Notes under the pieces: generated by a model
Database searches by the model: none
What the model saw: the letters and a program-made list of their open reading frames with translations, nothing else
Told to the model about the DNA's origin: nothing
Part shown: positions 26,537 to 58,975 of the stretch, one piece after another
How the letters are laid out: each line of letters opens with the position of its first letter
Position numbering within the stretch: the first letter of the stretch is position 1
Program-made: the position numbers and the translations under genes
Assembly (NCBI GenBank): GCA_963755915.1
Contig: CAVWLP010000002.1
Location: forward strand, 4,000,001 to 4,064,000
Source: an uncultured Phycisphaerales bacterium
Lineage (GTDB): Bacteria > Planctomycetota > Phycisphaerae > Tepidisphaerales > Tepidisphaeraceae
Length of the DNA stretch: 64,000 nucleotides
Reading direction: 5' to 3'

Positions 26537-26574
26537 CCCCACGGCAGCGCCGTGGGCGTTCAGGGAGCAAACTA
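26537..26574. repeat. REP-like palindrome family A (CCCACGG-N5-CCGTGGGCGTTC)
   Basis: ccccacggcagcgccgtgggcgttcagggagcaaact; copies at 32538 (interrupted), 47021 and 58950. Confidence 0.85.
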
Positions 26575-27093: not shown

Positions 27094-27122
27094 GGGAACT
27101 CCGTGGGGAAGATTGCCGATTG

Positions 27123-27146
27123 CGGTTCGACTGCGCTCACCGAAGT
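27123..27146. repeat. 24-bp micro-element B inserted in a degenerate ATTGCCG heptamer array
   Basis: cggttcgactgcgctcaccgaagt flanked by gattgccgattg and ccgatttccaattgccgaatt. Confidence 0.75.
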
Positions 27147-27357
27147 CCGATTTCCAATTGCCGAATTGGAAGAGGCGCGGGGAAAAAATAGTACGCGTCT
27201 ATATACAGGTCCAAAGGGTGTACGTTTTGTACCTATTTTTGGGAAATCTGGAGATTTTTGGGTTGAGATTTTTGAAGTTCGAAAGAATTTGTAAGGCAGT
27301 GTGGTGGGAGATGACGCGCCGGGCATATCGGGGGTTATGTTATCGCGCGCAGGCCTT

Positions 27358-31054: not shown

Positions 31055-31160
31055 ATTCGTTCCCGTTTAGCGAAATAGTCTTGCGATGTGGCGCACAGGG
31101 GAGGGTGAAGAGGCGCACTGCGGTTCGACACAGCTCACCGAAGTCGAGCGGGGCGGCTAT
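31055..31160. repeat. Repeat family D copy carrying an inserted element B (31121-31144)
   Basis: attcgttcccgtttagcgaaatagtcttgcgatgtggcgca..gcactg[cggttcgacacagctcaccgaagt]cgagcggggcggcta. Confidence 0.75.
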
Positions 31161-31380: not shown

Positions 31381-32415
31381 ACGAGGCTCACATCTGAAAG
31401 AATCGTCGCCGGCGACTTAAATTACGTCTCCCGCAGGGGTTTCACGCTGGTCGAACTGCTAGTGGTTATTGGTATTATTGCGATACTTATAGGCATTCTC
31501 CTGCCAGCACTCACCAAGGCGCGGAGGCAGGCGCAGGCGACTCAGTGTATGAGTAATCTGCGGCAGCTCGCGACCGCGGTTGTGAGTTACACAGAGGACA
31601 ACGACAGTTGGATGCCTTGCCGTGCGGGAGACACTAATACGGGATGGAGTAATGGCATAGCGACTACATCTGATCCTACCACCATCAATGGTGTGGGAGC
31701 GCCGGATAACACGGGGATGTGGATCGCTTGGCACTATATCAACGATCCTTATACAGGACTTACAAGCCAATTCGGAATACCGAGCGGCACATCGGACAAC
31801 GACCAGAATCTGAGCTATTCGTCGTTGGCGAAATATCTTGGAATTCCGTATACCAAAAGTGTCTATGCGGCAAGCGCCGGCACTCCCGGTGTTCCCCTCT
31901 CGAATGACGTTAACGCTCAGTTTGCCAATGTTTTTCGCTGTCCGGGCGATGATGTCCAGTCCCGGCCGAAAACGCAGGCTAACGCGGCAAATAACCAGGA
32001 GGATTACTATTACAGCTACAGTATGAATGACTTCGTGGGGAATCCGATCGAGAATCCGTCGAATTATGGTTCGAATGTCAATGCCAGGGCGTGGGGAGTG
32101 TTTACCGGGAAAATTACGTCGATTAAGAACTCGGCGAATATCGTCTTATTCGTTTGTGAAGATAACCGAACGCTCGATGACGGCTGTTTCTCAATCAATA
32201 TCAACAACTGGATTCTGAATAAGCCGGTGAACACGCTCTCGACCCGTCACTACGTGAATAAATTGACGGTGATCACTTCGCTTGGGCAGAATGTGAACCA
32301 GGACGGCTATGGGAACGCCTCGTTCTGTGATGGGCACGCAGAGGTGATTTCACGGAAGGATGTCTTCCGGCAGGCGCATTCCGGAAGCCCGCAGCCGGAT
32401 CCGGCGGGATTCTGA
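31381..32415 (+). CDS. DUF1559 family prepilin-type protein, paralog of 29911-30927
   Basis: [51 protein letters not shown]. Start placed at ACG after AAGGAGG. Confidence 0.88.
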
Positions 32416-32452: not shown

Positions 32453-32486
32453 CGCCTCCGTTTCGAAAGACGGAGGCGTTTTTTTT
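32453..32486 (+). terminator. Rho-independent terminator
   Basis: cgcctccgt-ttcgaaag-acggaggcg followed by T8, just downstream of the DUF1559 stop. Confidence 0.85.
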
Positions 32487-32537
32487 GGGGGGATGGGCAG
32501 TGGATTCGTTTGTGCGAAGTGAGCGGTTTTTGGAAGA

Positions 32538-32616
32538 CCCACGGCGGCGCGGTTCGGCTGCCTTCGGCTCTGAGGCTTAGGCTCGAAGAGAGCTCACCGA
32601 AGTCCGTGGGCGTTCA
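32538..32616. repeat. Triple-nested repeat: element C inside element B inside element A
   Basis: cccacggcggcg[cggttcggctg[ccttcggctctgaggcttaggctcgaagag]agctcaccgaagt]ccgtgggcgttca. Confidence 0.85.
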
Positions 32617-32647
32617 GGGATCAAACTGACCGAGTACCGGGGATGGA

Positions 32648-34729
32648 TCAGGGGTTGACTGTCCAGAGACATTCGTCGGTGAATTGCTGTCCGTTTTTCT
32701 CGGCTGATGCAGTTAACTCGCACTTTCCCGGTGCGAGGGGAACCTGATTCCAGACGAAGATGTGGTCGGCACTGGAACGGGTGCCGAGCAACCGGTCGTT
32801 GAGAAAGAGGCGGACCGTCTCGCAATTGGAATAGACCTTCAGGTCGGCGAGTCCGGCGGGGCGGGGGTTGTAGCGCTGGTCGGTGATGTGGACGAAGGGT
32901 TTTTCGGACCAGTTTGCCTTGTAGAAATAGAAGGCGTCTTTTCTGGTTTGGCGGTTGGCGGTGACGAGGCCCTTGTCGTTGCGGCCGGGGGTGTCGCCTT
33001 CATTGCGGGCGTCGGAGGCGAAATCGAACATGCACCAGACGTAGGTGCCCCACAGCCAGGGGCGCTGATTGATGGTGCGCCAGGCGGTTTCGTGGACGAG
33101 GGATTGCCATTCTTCGGGGTGCCAGTGGCCTTTGGTGGAGGGTTGGGTGGTGGGCTGCTCATGTTGCGCGATGCTGGCGCCGGCGCCGTATTCGCTGATG
33201 CCGATGGCGCGGTTGGGGAGGGTGGCGTGGAGTTTATCGAGTTCGGTAGGCCAATCCGAAACGGTTCCGGTGTACCAGCCGAAGTAGCGGTTGAAGCCGA
33301 TGATGTCGGGGTAGCCGTTGAGGGGGATTTCGGCGGGGAGATGGGAGGCGGCGACGGTGAGGCGCGTGGGATCTAGATGGTGGGCGATATCGTTGAGGTC
33401 GTGGACGAGACGCCAATCGGTGCGGGTATGGGGGCCGAGCTCGTTGAAGAGGCTCCAGAAGCAGATGGAGGGGTGATTATAGTTTTGCTTGATGAGCTCG
33501 CGGACCTGCTCCTGCGCGGCGGCGTAGAAGGCGGGGGTGTCGCTGATGCGATTGACGAGGCAGGCTTCGGCCCAGACGACGATGCCGGCGCGGTCGCAGA
33601 GGGAGTATTCGTATTCGGGGTGCTGGTAATGGGCGAGGCGGACGGTGTTGCAGCCCATTTCTTCGATCAGGGCGTAGCTTTGTTCGATATCGGCGGGGGT
33701 GACGGCCCAGCCTTTGTTGAAGAAGTCCTGGTGGACGGCTACGCCGTGGAGGGGGTAGGGATTGTTGTTGAGGAAAAAACCTTTTTGGGCGTCGACGCGG
33801 AAGGTTCTAAGGCCGAGGGGTTGGATGACGCGGTCTACGATCGTTCCGTTTTGGATGAGTTCGACGGTGGCTTGGTAGAGGTAGGGATCGGCTAGGCCGT
33901 TCCAGAGGTGGGGGGAGGGGATGGTTAGATTCTGGGTGACGTTGGCAGTGGAGTTGGCGGAGATATTTTGCGGGATTTGGGCGGAGCAGATTTGGTGATT
34001 TTCCGCGTCGGTGATGGTGCAGCGGACGTTGATGGCGGCGTCGGATGGGGAATCATTTTTCAGGAGGGTTAGGGCGGTGATTGAGGCGGAGTCGGGGGTG
34101 ATGCGGAAGGGCTGGAGGTAGAGGCCGGGGGAGGCGTCGTCCAGGGGGGAGATGTGGATTTTATTGAGGGTGAGGAGATGGACATTGCGATAGAGGCCGC
34201 CGCAGATGGTGAAGTCGCCGGAGAGAGGGGGGACGTCCTGGGTGGGGGAGTTGTCGACGCGGACGGCGAGGAGATTAACGCCGGGGTGGATGAGGGGGGT
34301 GATGTCGAAGCAGAAGGCGGCGAAGGCGCCGGCGTGATGGCCGGCGGGGTGGCCGTTGAGATAGACGTCGGCGACCATCGAGGCGGCTTCGAAGCGGAGG
34401 AAGAATTGTTTGCCGGTGTCGGCGGGGTCGATGTGGAGGGTGCGGCGATACCAGCAGGGGCCGCGGAAATAGTCGTTGCGGCCGTCCTGGCCGTCGAGGG
34501 CGTTCCAGGTGTGGGGGAGGGTGATGGATTGCCAGGCGGTGTCGTTGAAATCGGGGGATTGGGCGGAGGGGATGTCGCGGCGGAGGAAGCGCCAGCCGGT
34601 GGTGAGGAGGGTGTCTTGGTGGATGTCTTGGCGGGGGGATTGGGAGTTGGGGGTGGTGGCGCAGGCGGTGGAGAGGAGAGATAAGAGCGCGGTGAGGAGG
34701 ATGGTGCGGGAGAATGCGGGCGGGGGCAT
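32648..34729 (-). CDS. GH2 glycoside hydrolase, beta-glucuronidase/galacturonidase-like, probable lipoprotein
   Basis: Lipobox-like LSTAC; LPHTWN, VRLAHYQH, WSLFNE, ISEYGAG, NDKGLVT (N-K motif of uronidases). Confidence 0.85.
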   Translation of the reverse strand: MPPPAFSRTILLTALLSLLSTACATTPNSQSPRQDIHQDTLLTTGWRFLRRDIPSAQSPDFNDTAWQSITLPHTWNALDGQDGRNDYFRGPCWYRRTLHIDPADTGKQFFLRFEAASMVADVYLNGHPAGHHAGAFAAFCFDITPLIHPGVNLLAVRVDNSPTQDVPPLSGDFTICGGLYRNVHLLTLNKIHISPLDDASPGLYLQPFRITPDSASITALTLLKNDSPSDAAINVRCTITDAENHQICSAQIPQNISANSTANVTQNLTIPSPHLWNGLADPYLYQATVELIQNGTIVDRVIQPLGLRTFRVDAQKGFFLNNNPYPLHGVAVHQDFFNKGWAVTPADIEQSYALIEEMGCNTVRLAHYQHPEYEYSLCDRAGIVVWAEACLVNRISDTPAFYAAAQEQVRELIKQNYNHPSICFWSLFNELGPHTRTDWRLVHDLNDIAHHLDPTRLTVAASHLPAEIPLNGYPDIIGFNRYFGWYTGTVSDWPTELDKLHATLPNRAIGISEYGAGASIAQHEQPTTQPSTKGHWHPEEWQSLVHETAWRTINQRPWLWGTYVWCMFDFASDARNEGDTPGRNDKGLVTANRQTRKDAFYFYKANWSEKPFVHITDQRYNPRPAGLADLKVYSNCETVRLFLNDRLLGTRSSADHIFVWNQVPLAPGKCELTASAEKNGQQFTDECLWTVNP

Positions 34730-41902: not shown

Positions 41903-42882
41903 TGATTTTCGCGTGGCAAGGTTGGCAACTTCAGATGCCGGATGAATGGAATCCGGTGAATCTCCATGGGACGTTCGAGGCGGGTTATGCGCTGCTGTCG
42001 GATATTCATCGGCCGCGGCTGGGAATTCGGTGGGGGACGCCTGGGAGGGGATTCGATTGCAAGCGATGGGCGCGGGAGGCGCTGGTGGCGGAGATTGGGG
42101 AGCTTGCGGCGAAGGAAGGGGAAGAGTGCGGGGATGAGCGATTTGGGGAGGCGATTTTGTATTTGGAGGCGGAGCCGCCGGGACGGGACGTTTGGGTGGG
42201 GTTCAGCAAGGTTTTGGGGCGAACATTTGAGATGGTTCATCACGTTTACACAGGCGAAACTTCGAAGATGAGAAAGTTGGGAAAGGGATTTTCGGACGGG
42301 GCGATTGGATGTGGCTCAAAATTCTTTCACGGCCCTCACCCCCTCCCTCTCCTCTTCGAGCCTGAGCCTCAGAGCCGAAGGCCAGAGTACCGGGCGAGGG
42401 GGAAAGAAGCGCGTGGGGGAGAAATGGCTTGGGCGGCGTTTGATTTGAGTTGCGTGACTGGCGGTGGGTGGCGGCTGGCTTCGCATAAGATGAATGCGGG
42501 GGATTTGAGTTTGGAATTCGCGCGGAAATCGGAGCGGATGAGCGTGCGGCAGATCGCGGTGGCGCATTTGGCGTTGAAGCGGATGCTGCTGGAGAAGTGG
42601 ATAGAGGAGCAAAGTCGGCCGTGGATGAAACGGTATCGCCGGGTCGGCGACGTTGCGGCGGTTTCGATGGCGACGAGCGACGGGCGCGGGTTGGAAGGTG
42701 TTTCGTGCCGGCTGGAGCGCCGGAAGTTGATGATCTGGGGGCCCGGGATGGGGGCGATGTATCTGGCGGTGCTGCATGATGCAAGGAGGGACCGGCTGAT
42801 ATTCGTGGAGGCGAAGGACGAATCGCAGGCGGAGGAGTTGGTGCGTTCGGTTGGTTGGGCGGCGCAGGAGGTTTTGTGTTGA
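41899..42882 (+). CDS. Hypothetical protein of the FtsX/OPT operon, carrying an in-frame repeat insertion
   Basis: Overlaps both neighbours (TTGA couplings); two similar halves (FAWQGWQLQMPDEW / WAAFDLSCVTGGGW). Confidence 0.7.
   Translation: MMIFAWQGWQLQMPDEWNPVNLHGTFEAGYALLSDIHRPRLGIRWGTPGRGFDCKRWAREALVAEIGELAAKEGEECGDERFGEAILYLEAEPPGRDVWVGFSKVLGRTFEMVHHVYTGETSKMRKLGKGFSDGAIGCGSKFFHGPHPLPLLFEPEPQSRRPEYRARGKEARGGEMAWAAFDLSCVTGGGWRLASHKMNAGDLSLEFARKSERMSVRQIAVAHLALKRMLLEKWIEEQSRPWMKRYRRVGDVAAVSMATSDGRGLEGVSCRLERRKLMIWGPGMGAMYLAVLHDARRDRLIFVEAKDESQAEELVRSVGWAAQEVLC
42331..42409. repeat. Element E with nested 30-bp element C (42352-42381), inside a CDS
   Basis: ggccctcaccccctccctctc[ctcttcgagcctgagcctcagagccgaagg]ccagagtaccgggcgagggggaaagaag. 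Confidence 0.85.
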
Positions 42883-46964: not shown

Positions 46965-47929
46965 TTCAAAGGGCGCTGTTTTGGTGGGTTTGTTTGGAGG
47001 GCATCGGCGGAATTTGAATTCCCCACGGCAGCGCCGTGGGCGTTCACAGAGGAAACTGGGCCGGGAGCGTCGCCGTTTTGGTTGGTTAGAGGGGGGAGCA
47101 TGGTGCGGCCGCAGAGGCCGCGCTCTTCGAGCATTGCTTTGAGGGAAGCTAATCCGAGGCCCAGGGTGCGGCATTTGAGATATCGAGAGCAGAGGGCATC
47201 CGTTTGATTTTGCAGCTCTTCGACGGCGTCCCAGCGCTCTTCGGAGGCGGCGTCGAACAGGGCGCGATAGAGTTCCGGGGCGAGATTGGCGCCGCTGGGA
47301 ACGATGCCCGCGCCGCCGCGTTTGAGGCCGAGGAGGAACTGGGGGCTGTTGCCGATGAGGATGGGAAAACCGTCGCGACCACCGGTGAGGCGGAGGAGAT
47401 CGACGACGCGGGTGGGGTCGCCGGCGGACTCTTTCAGGGCGACGATGTTTTCGTGGCGGCGGAGGCGGTCGATTGCGGTGAGGGGAATGGTTTGATGCGT
47501 GGTGGACGGGATGTTGTAGAGAACCAGGGGAAGGGGAAGATCGTCGGCGAGGCGGACAAAGTAAGATTCGATCTGCTCGTTGGTGAGGGGAAAGTAACTG
47601 GGCACATGGGCGACAAGGACGTCGGCGCCGATTTGGGCGTAGGCTTTGGCGGCTTCGAGGGATTCCTGAAAGCAGTTGGCGGCGATGCCGGCGTAGACGG
47701 TGGCTTTTTTGTCGGCGGCGCGAACCGTGAACTCGACCAGACGCCGTTTTTCGGTGGGATGGATTGAGGCGGACTCGCCGGTGGTACCGAGGGCGAAGAT
47801 TCCGTGGACACCGCCGTTCACGAGGTGGGCGACGAGACGGTCAACCGCGGGTTTGTCGATGCGGCCGTCGGTGGTGAAGGGGCTGACCATGGGAACGACC
47901 AGTCCGTGGAGGGAAAGAGAAACGGGCAT
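46961..47929 (-). CDS. DHDPS/N-acetylneuraminate lyase family aldolase
   Basis: GIFALGTTGE, LVLYNIP, ALKES (Schiff-base Lys). Confidence 0.88.
   Translation of the reverse strand: MPVSLSLHGLVVPMVSPFTTDGRIDKPAVDRLVAHLVNGGVHGIFALGTTGESASIHPTEKRRLVEFTVRAADKKATVYAGIAANCFQESLEAAKAYAQIGADVLVAHVPSYFPLTNEQIESYFVRLADDLPLPLVLYNIPSTTHQTIPLTAIDRLRRHENIVALKESAGDPTRVVDLLRLTGGRDGFPILIGNSPQFLLGLKRGGAGIVPSGANLAPELYRALFDAASEERWDAVEELQNQTDALCSRYLKCRTLGLGLASLKAMLEERGLCGRTMLPPLTNQNGDAPGPVSSVNAHGAAVGNSNSADALQTNPPKQRPLK
47011..47046. repeat. REP-like palindrome family A inside the 3' end of the aldolase CDS
   Basis: aatttgaattccccacggcagcgccgtgggcgttca. Confidence 0.8.
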
Positions 47930-58939: not shown

Positions 58940-58975
58940 AATTCGAATTCCCCACGGCGGCGCCGTGGGCGTTCC
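58940..58975. repeat. REP-like palindrome family A
   Basis: aattcgaattccccacggcggcgccgtgggcgttcc. Confidence 0.8.

Follow-up and report, generated by a model that had tools for sequence, protein, structure and literature searches.

The window analysed here is a 64,000-nucleotide (nt) stretch (C2:4000001-4064000) of the genome of an uncultured Phycisphaerales bacterium (the source genome, G000; 6.63 Mb, 59% G+C, three contigs named C1 to C3), and at positions 32538-32615 it contains a nest of three short repeat elements, A, B and C, each interrupted by the next. The nest lies between two convergent open frames, 31462-32415 on the plus strand and 32648-34729 on the minus strand; just downstream of the former is a terminator-like hairpin, gcctccgtttcgaaagacggaggc followed by a T run (32454-32486), and the nest sits between this hairpin and the stop of the latter. 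Its outer host is a longer repeat, A-long (32500-32638, plus strand), which measures about 87 nt without its guests, has the approximate ends GTGGATTCGTTTG... and ...CAAACTGACCGAGTACC, and resembles other A copies in its flanks (GGTGGGTCAGTTTG ... CAAACTGACCCA). Within it follow, all on the plus strand, 12 nt of A (CCCACGGCGGCG, 32538-32549), 11 nt of B (CGGTTCGGCTG, 32550-32560), the complete 30-nt C (CCTTCGGCTCTGAGGCTTAGGCTCGAAGAG, 32561-32590, one base off its family consensus), 13 nt of B (AGCTCACCGAAGT, 32591-32603) and 12 nt of A (CCGTGGGCGTTC, 32604-32615), both B halves being recovered, at a spacing of 33 nt, by a half-site scan of the source genome. An earlier note on this DNA had proposed that removing C restores B and that removing B restores A, and both statements held: the rejoined A halves are identical to 58951-58974 at 24/24 positions, and the rejoined B halves form a 24-mer with 2 mismatches to 27123-27146 and 3 to 31121-31144. 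The reversed recurrence of C at 42352 was also confirmed, with one mismatch between C and the reverse complement of 42352-42381. Regarding the raw-read check suggested for the junctions, Logan contigs from two sequencing runs span them: record 3 of X1 covers 32500-32815 with one other letter and no gap, and record 22 of X4 covers 32492-32642 with zero differences. These are contigs rather than raw reads, and both runs are soil metagenomes of one study that may include the source sample.

Several other copies of these elements are present in the window, and their host repeats are designated here by letters. The intact A at 58951-58974 (plus strand) belongs to an A-long unit found in G000 only (a 99-nt insertion relative to the congeneric genome G001), as does a one-mismatch A at 47022-47045 (plus strand; 97 nt), and a further one-mismatch A occurs at 26538-26561 (plus strand). 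The intact B at 27123-27146 (plus strand) is inserted in host F, a GCCGATT-type heptamer array, and that at 31121-31144 (plus strand) in host I, a repetitive extragenic palindrome (REP) of the GTAG type (...gcgcactg^cgagcggggcggctat..., where ^ marks the insertion point here and below). The C copy at 42352-42381 (minus strand) has the consensus sequence and splits host D (42332-42402, minus strand), whose intact form is CC.GGTA.TCCGG^G.GAGGG.

We counted these elements in the source genome and in 40 relatives (41 genomes), 16 of which belong to other families of the class, allowing for B up to 4 mismatches in G000 (or using the half-site scan) and up to 2 in relatives, and for C 1 and up to 3 mismatches, respectively. 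G000 has 17 exact and 17 one-mismatch copies of A, 65 copies of B (76 intact copies and 9 interrupted by exactly 30 nt in the half-site scan) and 17 copies of C, with 32 C-like copies overall; reversed-pattern controls for A, B and C gave no match in the 41 genomes, and the recurrence therefore exceeds chance. B is composed of a 4-bp stem, a conserved 12-nt loop (TCGACTGAGCTC) and the tail AAGT. The stem is fully complementary in 67 of the 76 intact copies and exists in four versions (CGGT/ACCG in 37, CGGC/GCCG in 24, CGAC/GTCG in 5 and CGTC/GACG in 1), in which two pairs covary. When B is read on the other strand (B*, ACTTCGGTGAGCTCAGTCGAACCG), it can be written as A-CTTCGG-TGAG-CTCAG-TCGAA-CCG, next to C-CTTCGG-CTC-TGAG-G-CTCAG-GC-TCGAA-GAG for C and C-CTTCGG-GTC-TGAG-C-CTCAG-GG-TCGAA-GAC for a further element, C' (CCTTCGGGTCTGAGCCTCAGGGTCGAAGAC). 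By inspection, 21 of the 24 positions of B* align with C and C' across three gaps (3, 1 and 2 nt), and the blocks CTTCGG, TGAG, CTCAG and TCGAA are common to all three; because of this alignment, B, C and C' are treated as one superfamily. The B pattern also caught 24 units of an unrelated tandem array in an IS21-like element, which were set aside. This element has about 15 copies in G000 (C2:816391-816510, 1631815-1632054 and 2519797-2519988 among others, none of them in the window) and carries in its istA frame a tandem 24-nt unit, CGGCTCGACGGTGCTCGCCGCAGG, which has the same length as B, matches its consensus at 20/24 positions and varies in number from 1 to 10 between otherwise near-identical copies.

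B occupies at least 10 host families in G000. The most frequent are A, the central hairpin of A-long (21 loci), and the GTAG-tagged REP I (GTAGCCGCC..., 21), followed by H (ccgccggtgaggaca^ccggcgg, 10), the heptamer arrays F (8), N (5), J (4) and M (3), host K (5), C' on the reverse strand (rcC', 3) and the REP L (TTAGCCGCG..., 2); 12 further rows fall to other hosts, one of them false (coding-like), and some of these hosts are perfect palindromes halved at their exact centre, such as ccccaggatgg^ccatcctgggg. The expectation that the targets would be other hairpin repeats thus holds for REPs and palindromes, whereas many hosts are heptamer arrays. Such arrays are abundant in the intergenic DNA of G000 (for example window 27100-27175), with units such as GCCGATT/GCCAAAT, CTCTGCG, CTTGGCG, ATCCGCG and GGTTTCT; they are landing places of B and C' and recall the short tandem heptamers of cyanobacteria. 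C and C' are hosted by D, B, an array (E) and themselves; both nest with B, and B and C' occur inside each other. A second three-deep nest, A[B[rcC']], is found at C2:1776478, and rcC'[B'[rcC']] and D[C[C]] occur at C2:814579 and C3:222289, while A[B[rcC'[B']]] at C2:700997 is four deep. Strict patterns gave 34 intact versus 14 filled copies of A (B alone in 11, B plus C in 2 and 79 extra nt in 1) and 21 versus 7 of H (B alone in 5, B plus C in 2). They gave 151 intact copies of D, against which stand about 17 D-hosted C among the C-like copies of G000 (the strict D pattern with 30 extra nt has 12 matches, 6 of them consensus C); for L and I, 53 and 24 intact copies were found together with 4 and 13 copies carrying 24 extra nt. 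The B copies in host I have their own variant, for example with an ACACAG centre. Open frames of 600 nt or more contain only 39 of 95 B rows, versus 85% of 1000 random places, which is a depletion from long frames and says nothing on the translation of copies.

Comparison with G001, a congener that is inverted-collinear with G000:C2:3.84-4.28 Mb at 85-93% identity, revealed sites at which a guest is present in one genome and precisely missing from the other. At the nest itself, G001 has A-long, A and an intact B (cggttcgactgggctcaccgaagt), and C corresponds to an exact 30-nt gap. A D repeat holds C at G001 C3:703019 and is intact at G000 C2:4633357, again with an exact 30-nt gap, and two B copies of G000, in host L at C2:4142161 (gtttagccgcga^cccgcagg) and in host I at C2:4187970 (gtagccgccgtgcttg^cacggcg), face exact 24-nt gaps in G001. 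B and C are therefore not confined to a fixed composite, and four exact empty sites exist. For the C copy at window 42352, a D-like repeat without C was found nearby in G001, at a place where the alignment is poor. The comparison took in 442 kb of G000, with 10 B and 4 C copies, and 800 kb of G001, with 14 B and 9 C. Four B copies are shared altogether: C2:3917515 and its counterpart G001 C3:414099 are a single locus that enters the count once per genome, and G001 C3:680670 and the nest's own B are the others. Hosts themselves were also found in only one of the two genomes (I, 24 nt; H, 32 nt; D, 48 nt; A-long, 95-121 nt), and six gains or losses involved a host together with its guest (G000 4122759; G001 304263, 686461, 687019, 532449 and 541530).

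The junctions follow a simple rule. Cytosine follows B in 91 of 92 copies, and B begins with cytosine in 91 of 92. For C and C' in G000, the last base of the element equals the base ahead of it in 31 of 32 copies (G/G in 24, C/C in 7). Exact C copies in other genomes have G ahead in 114/115 and a purine behind in 105/115 of the loci with enough flank among the matches listed. Target duplication does not exceed 1 nt, and gap ends are exact to within an ambiguity of at most 1 nt. That an element follows the same base as its own end is compatible with two events, the duplication of 1 nt or a cut behind this base both in the target and at the end of the element. Four metagenome matches of C end in a base other than G, all of them with G ahead; they are probably point mutants. 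Typical sites are CTG^AG (within B, C' and C), CTC^AG (C' in B) and CCGG^G.GAGGG (D), and B typically enters at N^C at, or no more than 2 nt from, a hairpin tip. Orientation is equally constant: the D-hosted C copies of G000 and 13 D-host loci elsewhere all read ...ccgg[C]g.gaggg, and in G000 C lies in B in the plus orientation in 5/5 cases and C' in B in the minus orientation in 4/4.

Among the relatives, B was detected in 15/40 and C in 8/40 genomes, all of one family (f1), and pattern searches of the 16 genomes from other families of the class found neither. Within the genus, B is present in 10 and C in 4 of the 12 other genomes. Copy numbers of C range from 62 in G015 (61 exact), 24 in G001, 15 in G017 and 4 in G011 to 1-2 in the others, and they are uncoupled from those of B (40 B and no C in G006; 9 B and 62 C in G015). 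Named records with the same repeat families are mostly metagenome-assembled genomes of Tepidisphaeraceae, Phycisphaerae or Planctomycetales; G014 (one B match) and a Binatia holder of C are flagged as unpublished, and the sequencing runs listed as holders include no RNA run. A scan for the exact C 30-mer with one genome per species, which as an exact-word search counts no diverged relatives, found at least 116 loci. Among the matches listed, 22 of the 80 titled rows have labels from outside the Planctomycetota, including Curtiss-, Davies-, Wolfe- and Jorgensenbacteria, Saccharibacteria and "Patescibacteria group" on the Patescibacteria side as well as Zixibacteria (one a 2.7-Mb chromosome), Gammaproteobacteria, Binatia and unclassified "bacterium". 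The hosts of exact C across genomes form at least 8 classes, with 32 loci fitting none among the matches listed. At 24 of the at least 116 loci the host is a different one, ..CCTTCGAC..GCTCAGG^C^GT.., with G+C-poorer outer flanks (mean 0.43); five genomes of 0.7-4.8 Mb with this host have 1-2 C copies each, and its motif recurs at low copy number in G000 and in four of the genomes with this host (2-9 copies each; control 0-2). A looser scan with the loop motif TCGA[CG]..GCTC was discarded as too unspecific (810 matches versus 425 for the reversed control). C has no match in viral contigs or in PLSDB plasmids. The B pattern has 18 exact matches in IMG/VR viral contigs (L147-L164), three of them on one 68.8-kb contig.

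Mobility as such of B*, C and C' appears highly probable to us. The independent movement and precise insertion suggested in the earlier note are borne out by exact 30- and 24-nt orthologous gaps, at least 10 hosts of B and at least 8 host classes of C, and the mutual nesting of B and C'. The fuller proposal regards B, C and C' as one superfamily of micro-elements that move independently, though not autonomously, with the mode of insertion outlined below, and it is in our view the probable explanation, if by no great measure. According to this proposal, an element would enter whole and in fixed orientation relative to an asymmetric target, directly after one base (G for B* and C, C for C'). Preferred targets would be, on the one hand, the tips of small hairpin repeats (REPs, palindromes and B's and C's own core, CTGAG/CTCAG) and, on the other, the joints within heptamer arrays; the targets of B and C are DNA that readily turns single-stranded. 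Because the targets are repeats, some of them mobile, nests may reach four levels and guests may be copied along with their hosts, and hitch-hiking on mobile hosts would inflate copy number. A protein acting in trans may cut and join the elements in single-stranded form. The leading candidate, which we put forward tentatively and by analogy, would be an HUH/Y1 nuclease-ligase, either a REP-associated tyrosine transposase (RAYT) or an IS200/IS605-like enzyme, which would cut both the target and the element's 3' end behind an identical base. It is also conceivable, although we would not count on it, that C, B*, C' and the TTCGAC..GCTCAGG hosts of small genomes form one cross-phylum "hairpin-homing" class. 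In that case the mover would work in Planctomycetota, Patescibacteria, Zixibacteria and others, being either a conserved host function or one that travels between phyla, and the letter-perfect 30-mer would represent its complete recognition unit or else have been copied from a conserved template.

The search for a mobilising enzyme provided the first of several results that weigh against the proposal of trans-mobilised micro-elements. G000 has two Y1_Tnp (PF01797) genes, both on contig C3, and the statement that the window contains no mobilising enzyme is accordingly correct for this family, the only one for which the window was scanned. One gene (C3:576227-576838, in the locus C3:576175-576838) is bracketed by REP L (TTAGCCGCGACCC..., C3:576175-576230 and 576798-576827) and the other (C3:1125007-1125801, in the locus C3:1124983-1125801) by a repeat P (AAAACGGGGACGCAGCTAGTTTT, C3:1124983-1125025 and 1125773-1125790), with 16-mer counts in G000 of 46 for L, which is also a B host, and 13 for P; each gene with its own flanking repeats is a classical RAYT-REP arrangement. 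No A, B or C lies within 5 kb of either gene, and among 20 Y1 loci in G001, G003, G006, G015 and G017 none has B and one has C. Y1_Tnp occurs in all 24 other genomes of the family, including those free of B and C, in numbers that, over the 41 genomes, do not track either element: G023 has 17 Y1 matches and no B or C, and in G011 a single weak match stands against 19 B and 4 C, counts in which related genomes are not independent and Y1 subfamilies are pooled. The proposal of a RAYT or small endonuclease acting in trans thus received no support from adjacency and co-occurrence, and it stays a candidate. Two repeat-rich clusters (C3:214-225 kb and C1:30-39 kb) contain housekeeping genes (aquaporin, GidA, catalase, a sigma factor and similar) and no nuclease or transposase. 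No enzyme could be tied to B or C in these searches, which did not include GIY-YIG, DUF559, reverse transcriptases or other HUH families; hence, the HUH/Y1 idea comes from the style of insertion alone, namely no inverted ends, no duplication, strand specificity and entry after a fixed base into DNA prone to being single-stranded. G001 carries eight identical copies of an IS200/IS605-type TnpA (122 bits to PF01797), at C3:454670-459492 and six other places; G000 lacks a TnpA of this kind, and the numbers of B and C are similar in both genomes.

Other unfavourable points concern the elements themselves. The palindromic character ascribed to the units in the earlier note is strong in A alone (DNA fold -9.5 kcal/mol, z -2.9); B is no true palindrome, and the hairpins of B and C are thermodynamically weak and fold no better than shuffles. 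Plus and minus counts per 500-kb bin show no strand switch, although the numbers are small and GC skew, governed mainly by local effects, defines no replichores. Clean guest-only gaps amount to 4 among 37 B and C copies in about 840 kb of compared sequence, most others being without alignable flanks, and G000 and G001 also differ by complete A-long+B, I+B and D+C units that one of them lacks, so that many copies may reflect few insertions plus the spread of hosts with their guests. Finally, a letter-perfect 30-mer across phyla is not usual for a transposase-bound end and is unexplained.

An account without any dedicated enzyme would be template switching at stalled hairpins or ectopic gene conversion between host copies, in which a filled host copy templates the repair of an empty one in a homing-like manner. 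We regard it as unlikely, yet as deserving real weight. It would agree with the observation that guests lie almost only in repeated hosts, at constant position and orientation per host family, with the failure to find an enzyme among Y1 loci and counts and in the two repeat-rich clusters, and with the single C copies in genomes of 0.7-1.0 Mb. However, conversion leaves unexplained the first entry into at least 10 (B) and at least 8 (C) unrelated hosts whose flanks share one base; hosts such as I (24 nt) or D offer merely 12-20 nt of homology per side, and the element is always copied whole with exact ends.

A copy made through RNA, with a short transcript being reverse-transcribed or used as repair template at hairpin tips, is a poor prospect in our estimation. 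The lack of target duplication would suit this route, as would the covarying B stem, which behaves like that of a structured RNA, and the G-T pairs in the top-strand fold of C, and a conserved template would make an invariant sequence across phyla easier to explain. On the other hand, Rfam yielded no match at gathering score in window 26000-60000 (copies of A, B, C and D included), none of the 32 C-like copies in G000 has a setting of its own that would mark it as a master copy, the two forms C and C' are found either way round with respect to B, and no reverse transcriptase is linked to the elements, none having been searched for.

We give even less credence to the possibility that B and C are protein-binding or terminator-like modules kept by selection and recruited repeatedly. 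Extreme sequence conservation within and between phyla, a conserved B loop on a variable stem and a mostly intergenic location are what such modules should display. Selection does not, however, explain the precise arrival of a 30-mer inside other repeats; the elements are patchy among congeners (C in 4/12, B in 10/12), and copies interrupt one another, which should destroy a module. A function of this sort could nevertheless hold alongside mobility.

Lower still we rank the idea that the composites are fixed units which multiply only whole, B and C having no mobility of their own. The whole-unit gains and losses between G000 and G001 and the host-specific B variants, such as the ACACAG centre in host I, are in its favour. 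It is contradicted by the guest-only gaps at four orthologous sites, by the same C in many unrelated hosts and phyla, by B lying in C' as well as C' in B, and by intact hosts outnumbering filled ones (A, D, H and L). That the nest is an assembly or sequencing artefact can practically be dismissed: palindromic repeats are hard to assemble and all named element-bearing genomes are metagenome-assembled, but the nest is spanned by independent contigs from two runs, its architecture is seen again at other G000 loci and in assemblies with different naming schemes, and chimeric joining would not yield insertions flanked on both sides by one and the same host repeat, as these are.

For mobile micro-elements as proposed here, the closest known precedent would be the small dispersed repeats (SDR) of cyanobacteria, judged by analogy. 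Reportedly, Elhai et al. described in 2008 SDR4-6 of heterocystous cyanobacteria as dispersed, precisely inserted units of 21-27 nt. To our knowledge, no encoded enzyme has been associated with them. An excerpt of PMC4390886 locates SDR5 behind the third base and ahead of the fourth in the HIP1 octamer. Both systems consist of tiny dispersed units inserted precisely in other short repeats, a likeness of kind and not of sequence. They differ in phylum, in that the guests and some hosts described here belong to one superfamily whose members insert mutually up to four deep, and in that one member is letter-identical in several phyla.

REPs, together with bacterial interspersed mosaic elements (BIMEs) and REP doublets forming hairpins (REPINs), are high-copy, mostly intergenic hairpins of 20-40 nt without target duplication, whose movement is ascribed to a Y1 HUH protein acting in trans. 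B and C are likewise short, high-copy and mainly intergenic, the B stem covaries, and inverted B doublets in G006, with pairs 43-46 nt apart (C1:691917/691963, C2:117014/117057 and C3:43840/43883), resemble REPINs. As far as excerpts of PMC3733652 go, REPs inside small palindromes are on record as GTAG-23 of Thermomicrobium roseum and GTAG-15 of Anabaena variabilis, and GTAG REPs are documented in Planctomycetes. In contrast to REP-RAYT systems, B, C and C' have no GTAG or CGTC tag, which hosts I and L do have, and B and C do not bracket the Y1 genes examined and instead enter the REPs I and L. The phrase "parasites of REPs", used for them in the earlier note, is therefore apt: both I and L are REPs with a GTAG/TAG tag, and one of them, L, brackets a Y1 (RAYT-like) gene.

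IS200/IS605 elements have no inverted terminal repeats, cause no target duplication and insert strand-specifically 3' of a short sequence, using end hairpins and single-stranded DNA. Insertion of B and C is similar in lacking duplication and in following a fixed base on one strand. Known miniature derivatives of this family, the palindrome-associated transposable elements (PATEs), have at least about 100 nt and separate left and right ends. Unlike these, a single unit of 24-30 nt would here have to serve as both ends, with a target of about one base plus context, and TnpA copy number does not track B or C. Miniature inverted-repeat transposable elements (MITEs), which derive from DDE transposons, have terminal inverted repeats, target duplications of at least 2 bp and usually more than 50 nt; B and C, with 24-30 nt and a duplication of at most 1 nt, are indeed far smaller, as had been claimed, while the outer host A-long (about 87-120 nt, inverted ends) looks MITE-like.

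The guanine-cytosine (GC) clusters and hairpin elements of organelles (yeast mitochondria, the double hairpins of Allomyces, the repetitive hairpin elements (RHEs) of sponges, Volvox) resemble our elements in being tiny, GC-rich and spread in non-coding DNA; C, too, stands out as a GC-rich unit from its G+C-poorer flanks in small genomes. We know of no enzyme for these hairpin elements of organelles, and a short target is duplicated by the GC clusters of yeast mitochondria. The part of PMC2670323 available mentions palindromes of organelles that are "inserted into one another", and a portion of PMC2800124 treats transposition, RNA intermediates and conversion as all debated for organelle hairpin elements. 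The elements here differ in being bacterial and unrelated in sequence. The pneumococcal BOX, RUP and SPRITE repeats are MITE-like units of about 100-200 nt. They are reported to be inserted into one another (PMC3049150, in excerpt), whereas the guests described here have 24-30 nt. Literature searches, which largely left out subscription journals, found no paper printing the B or C sequences (apart from one unrelated primer match), and general searches found no description of such elements in Planctomycetota. Very small mobile repeats are already known; what is new is the multi-level mutual nesting within one superfamily and the cross-phylum invariant member.

Elements of 24-30 nt lie at the smallest end of what has been demonstrated to move in genomes, and how such tiny units are cut, carried and pasted is not known for the cyanobacterial repeats of 2008 either. 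The lineage studied here offers an unusually clean handle on this question: its congeners provide exact empty and filled sites, the junctions obey a simple rule and the nests record the order of events. In addition, C is identical in distant phyla including genomes below 1 Mb, where the limited number of genes would allow a search for the mover. B and C also build long imperfect intergenic hairpins, interrupt REPs and confuse repeat annotation and metagenome assembly, and because both lengths are multiples of three, they may enter coding sequence. Further guest families besides B and C probably exist: a palindromic unit of about 23 nt seems to split the right arm of some D copies (...GGGAGAGGG[CAAGCGGGCGCAAGCCCGCGCGG]GTGAGGG).

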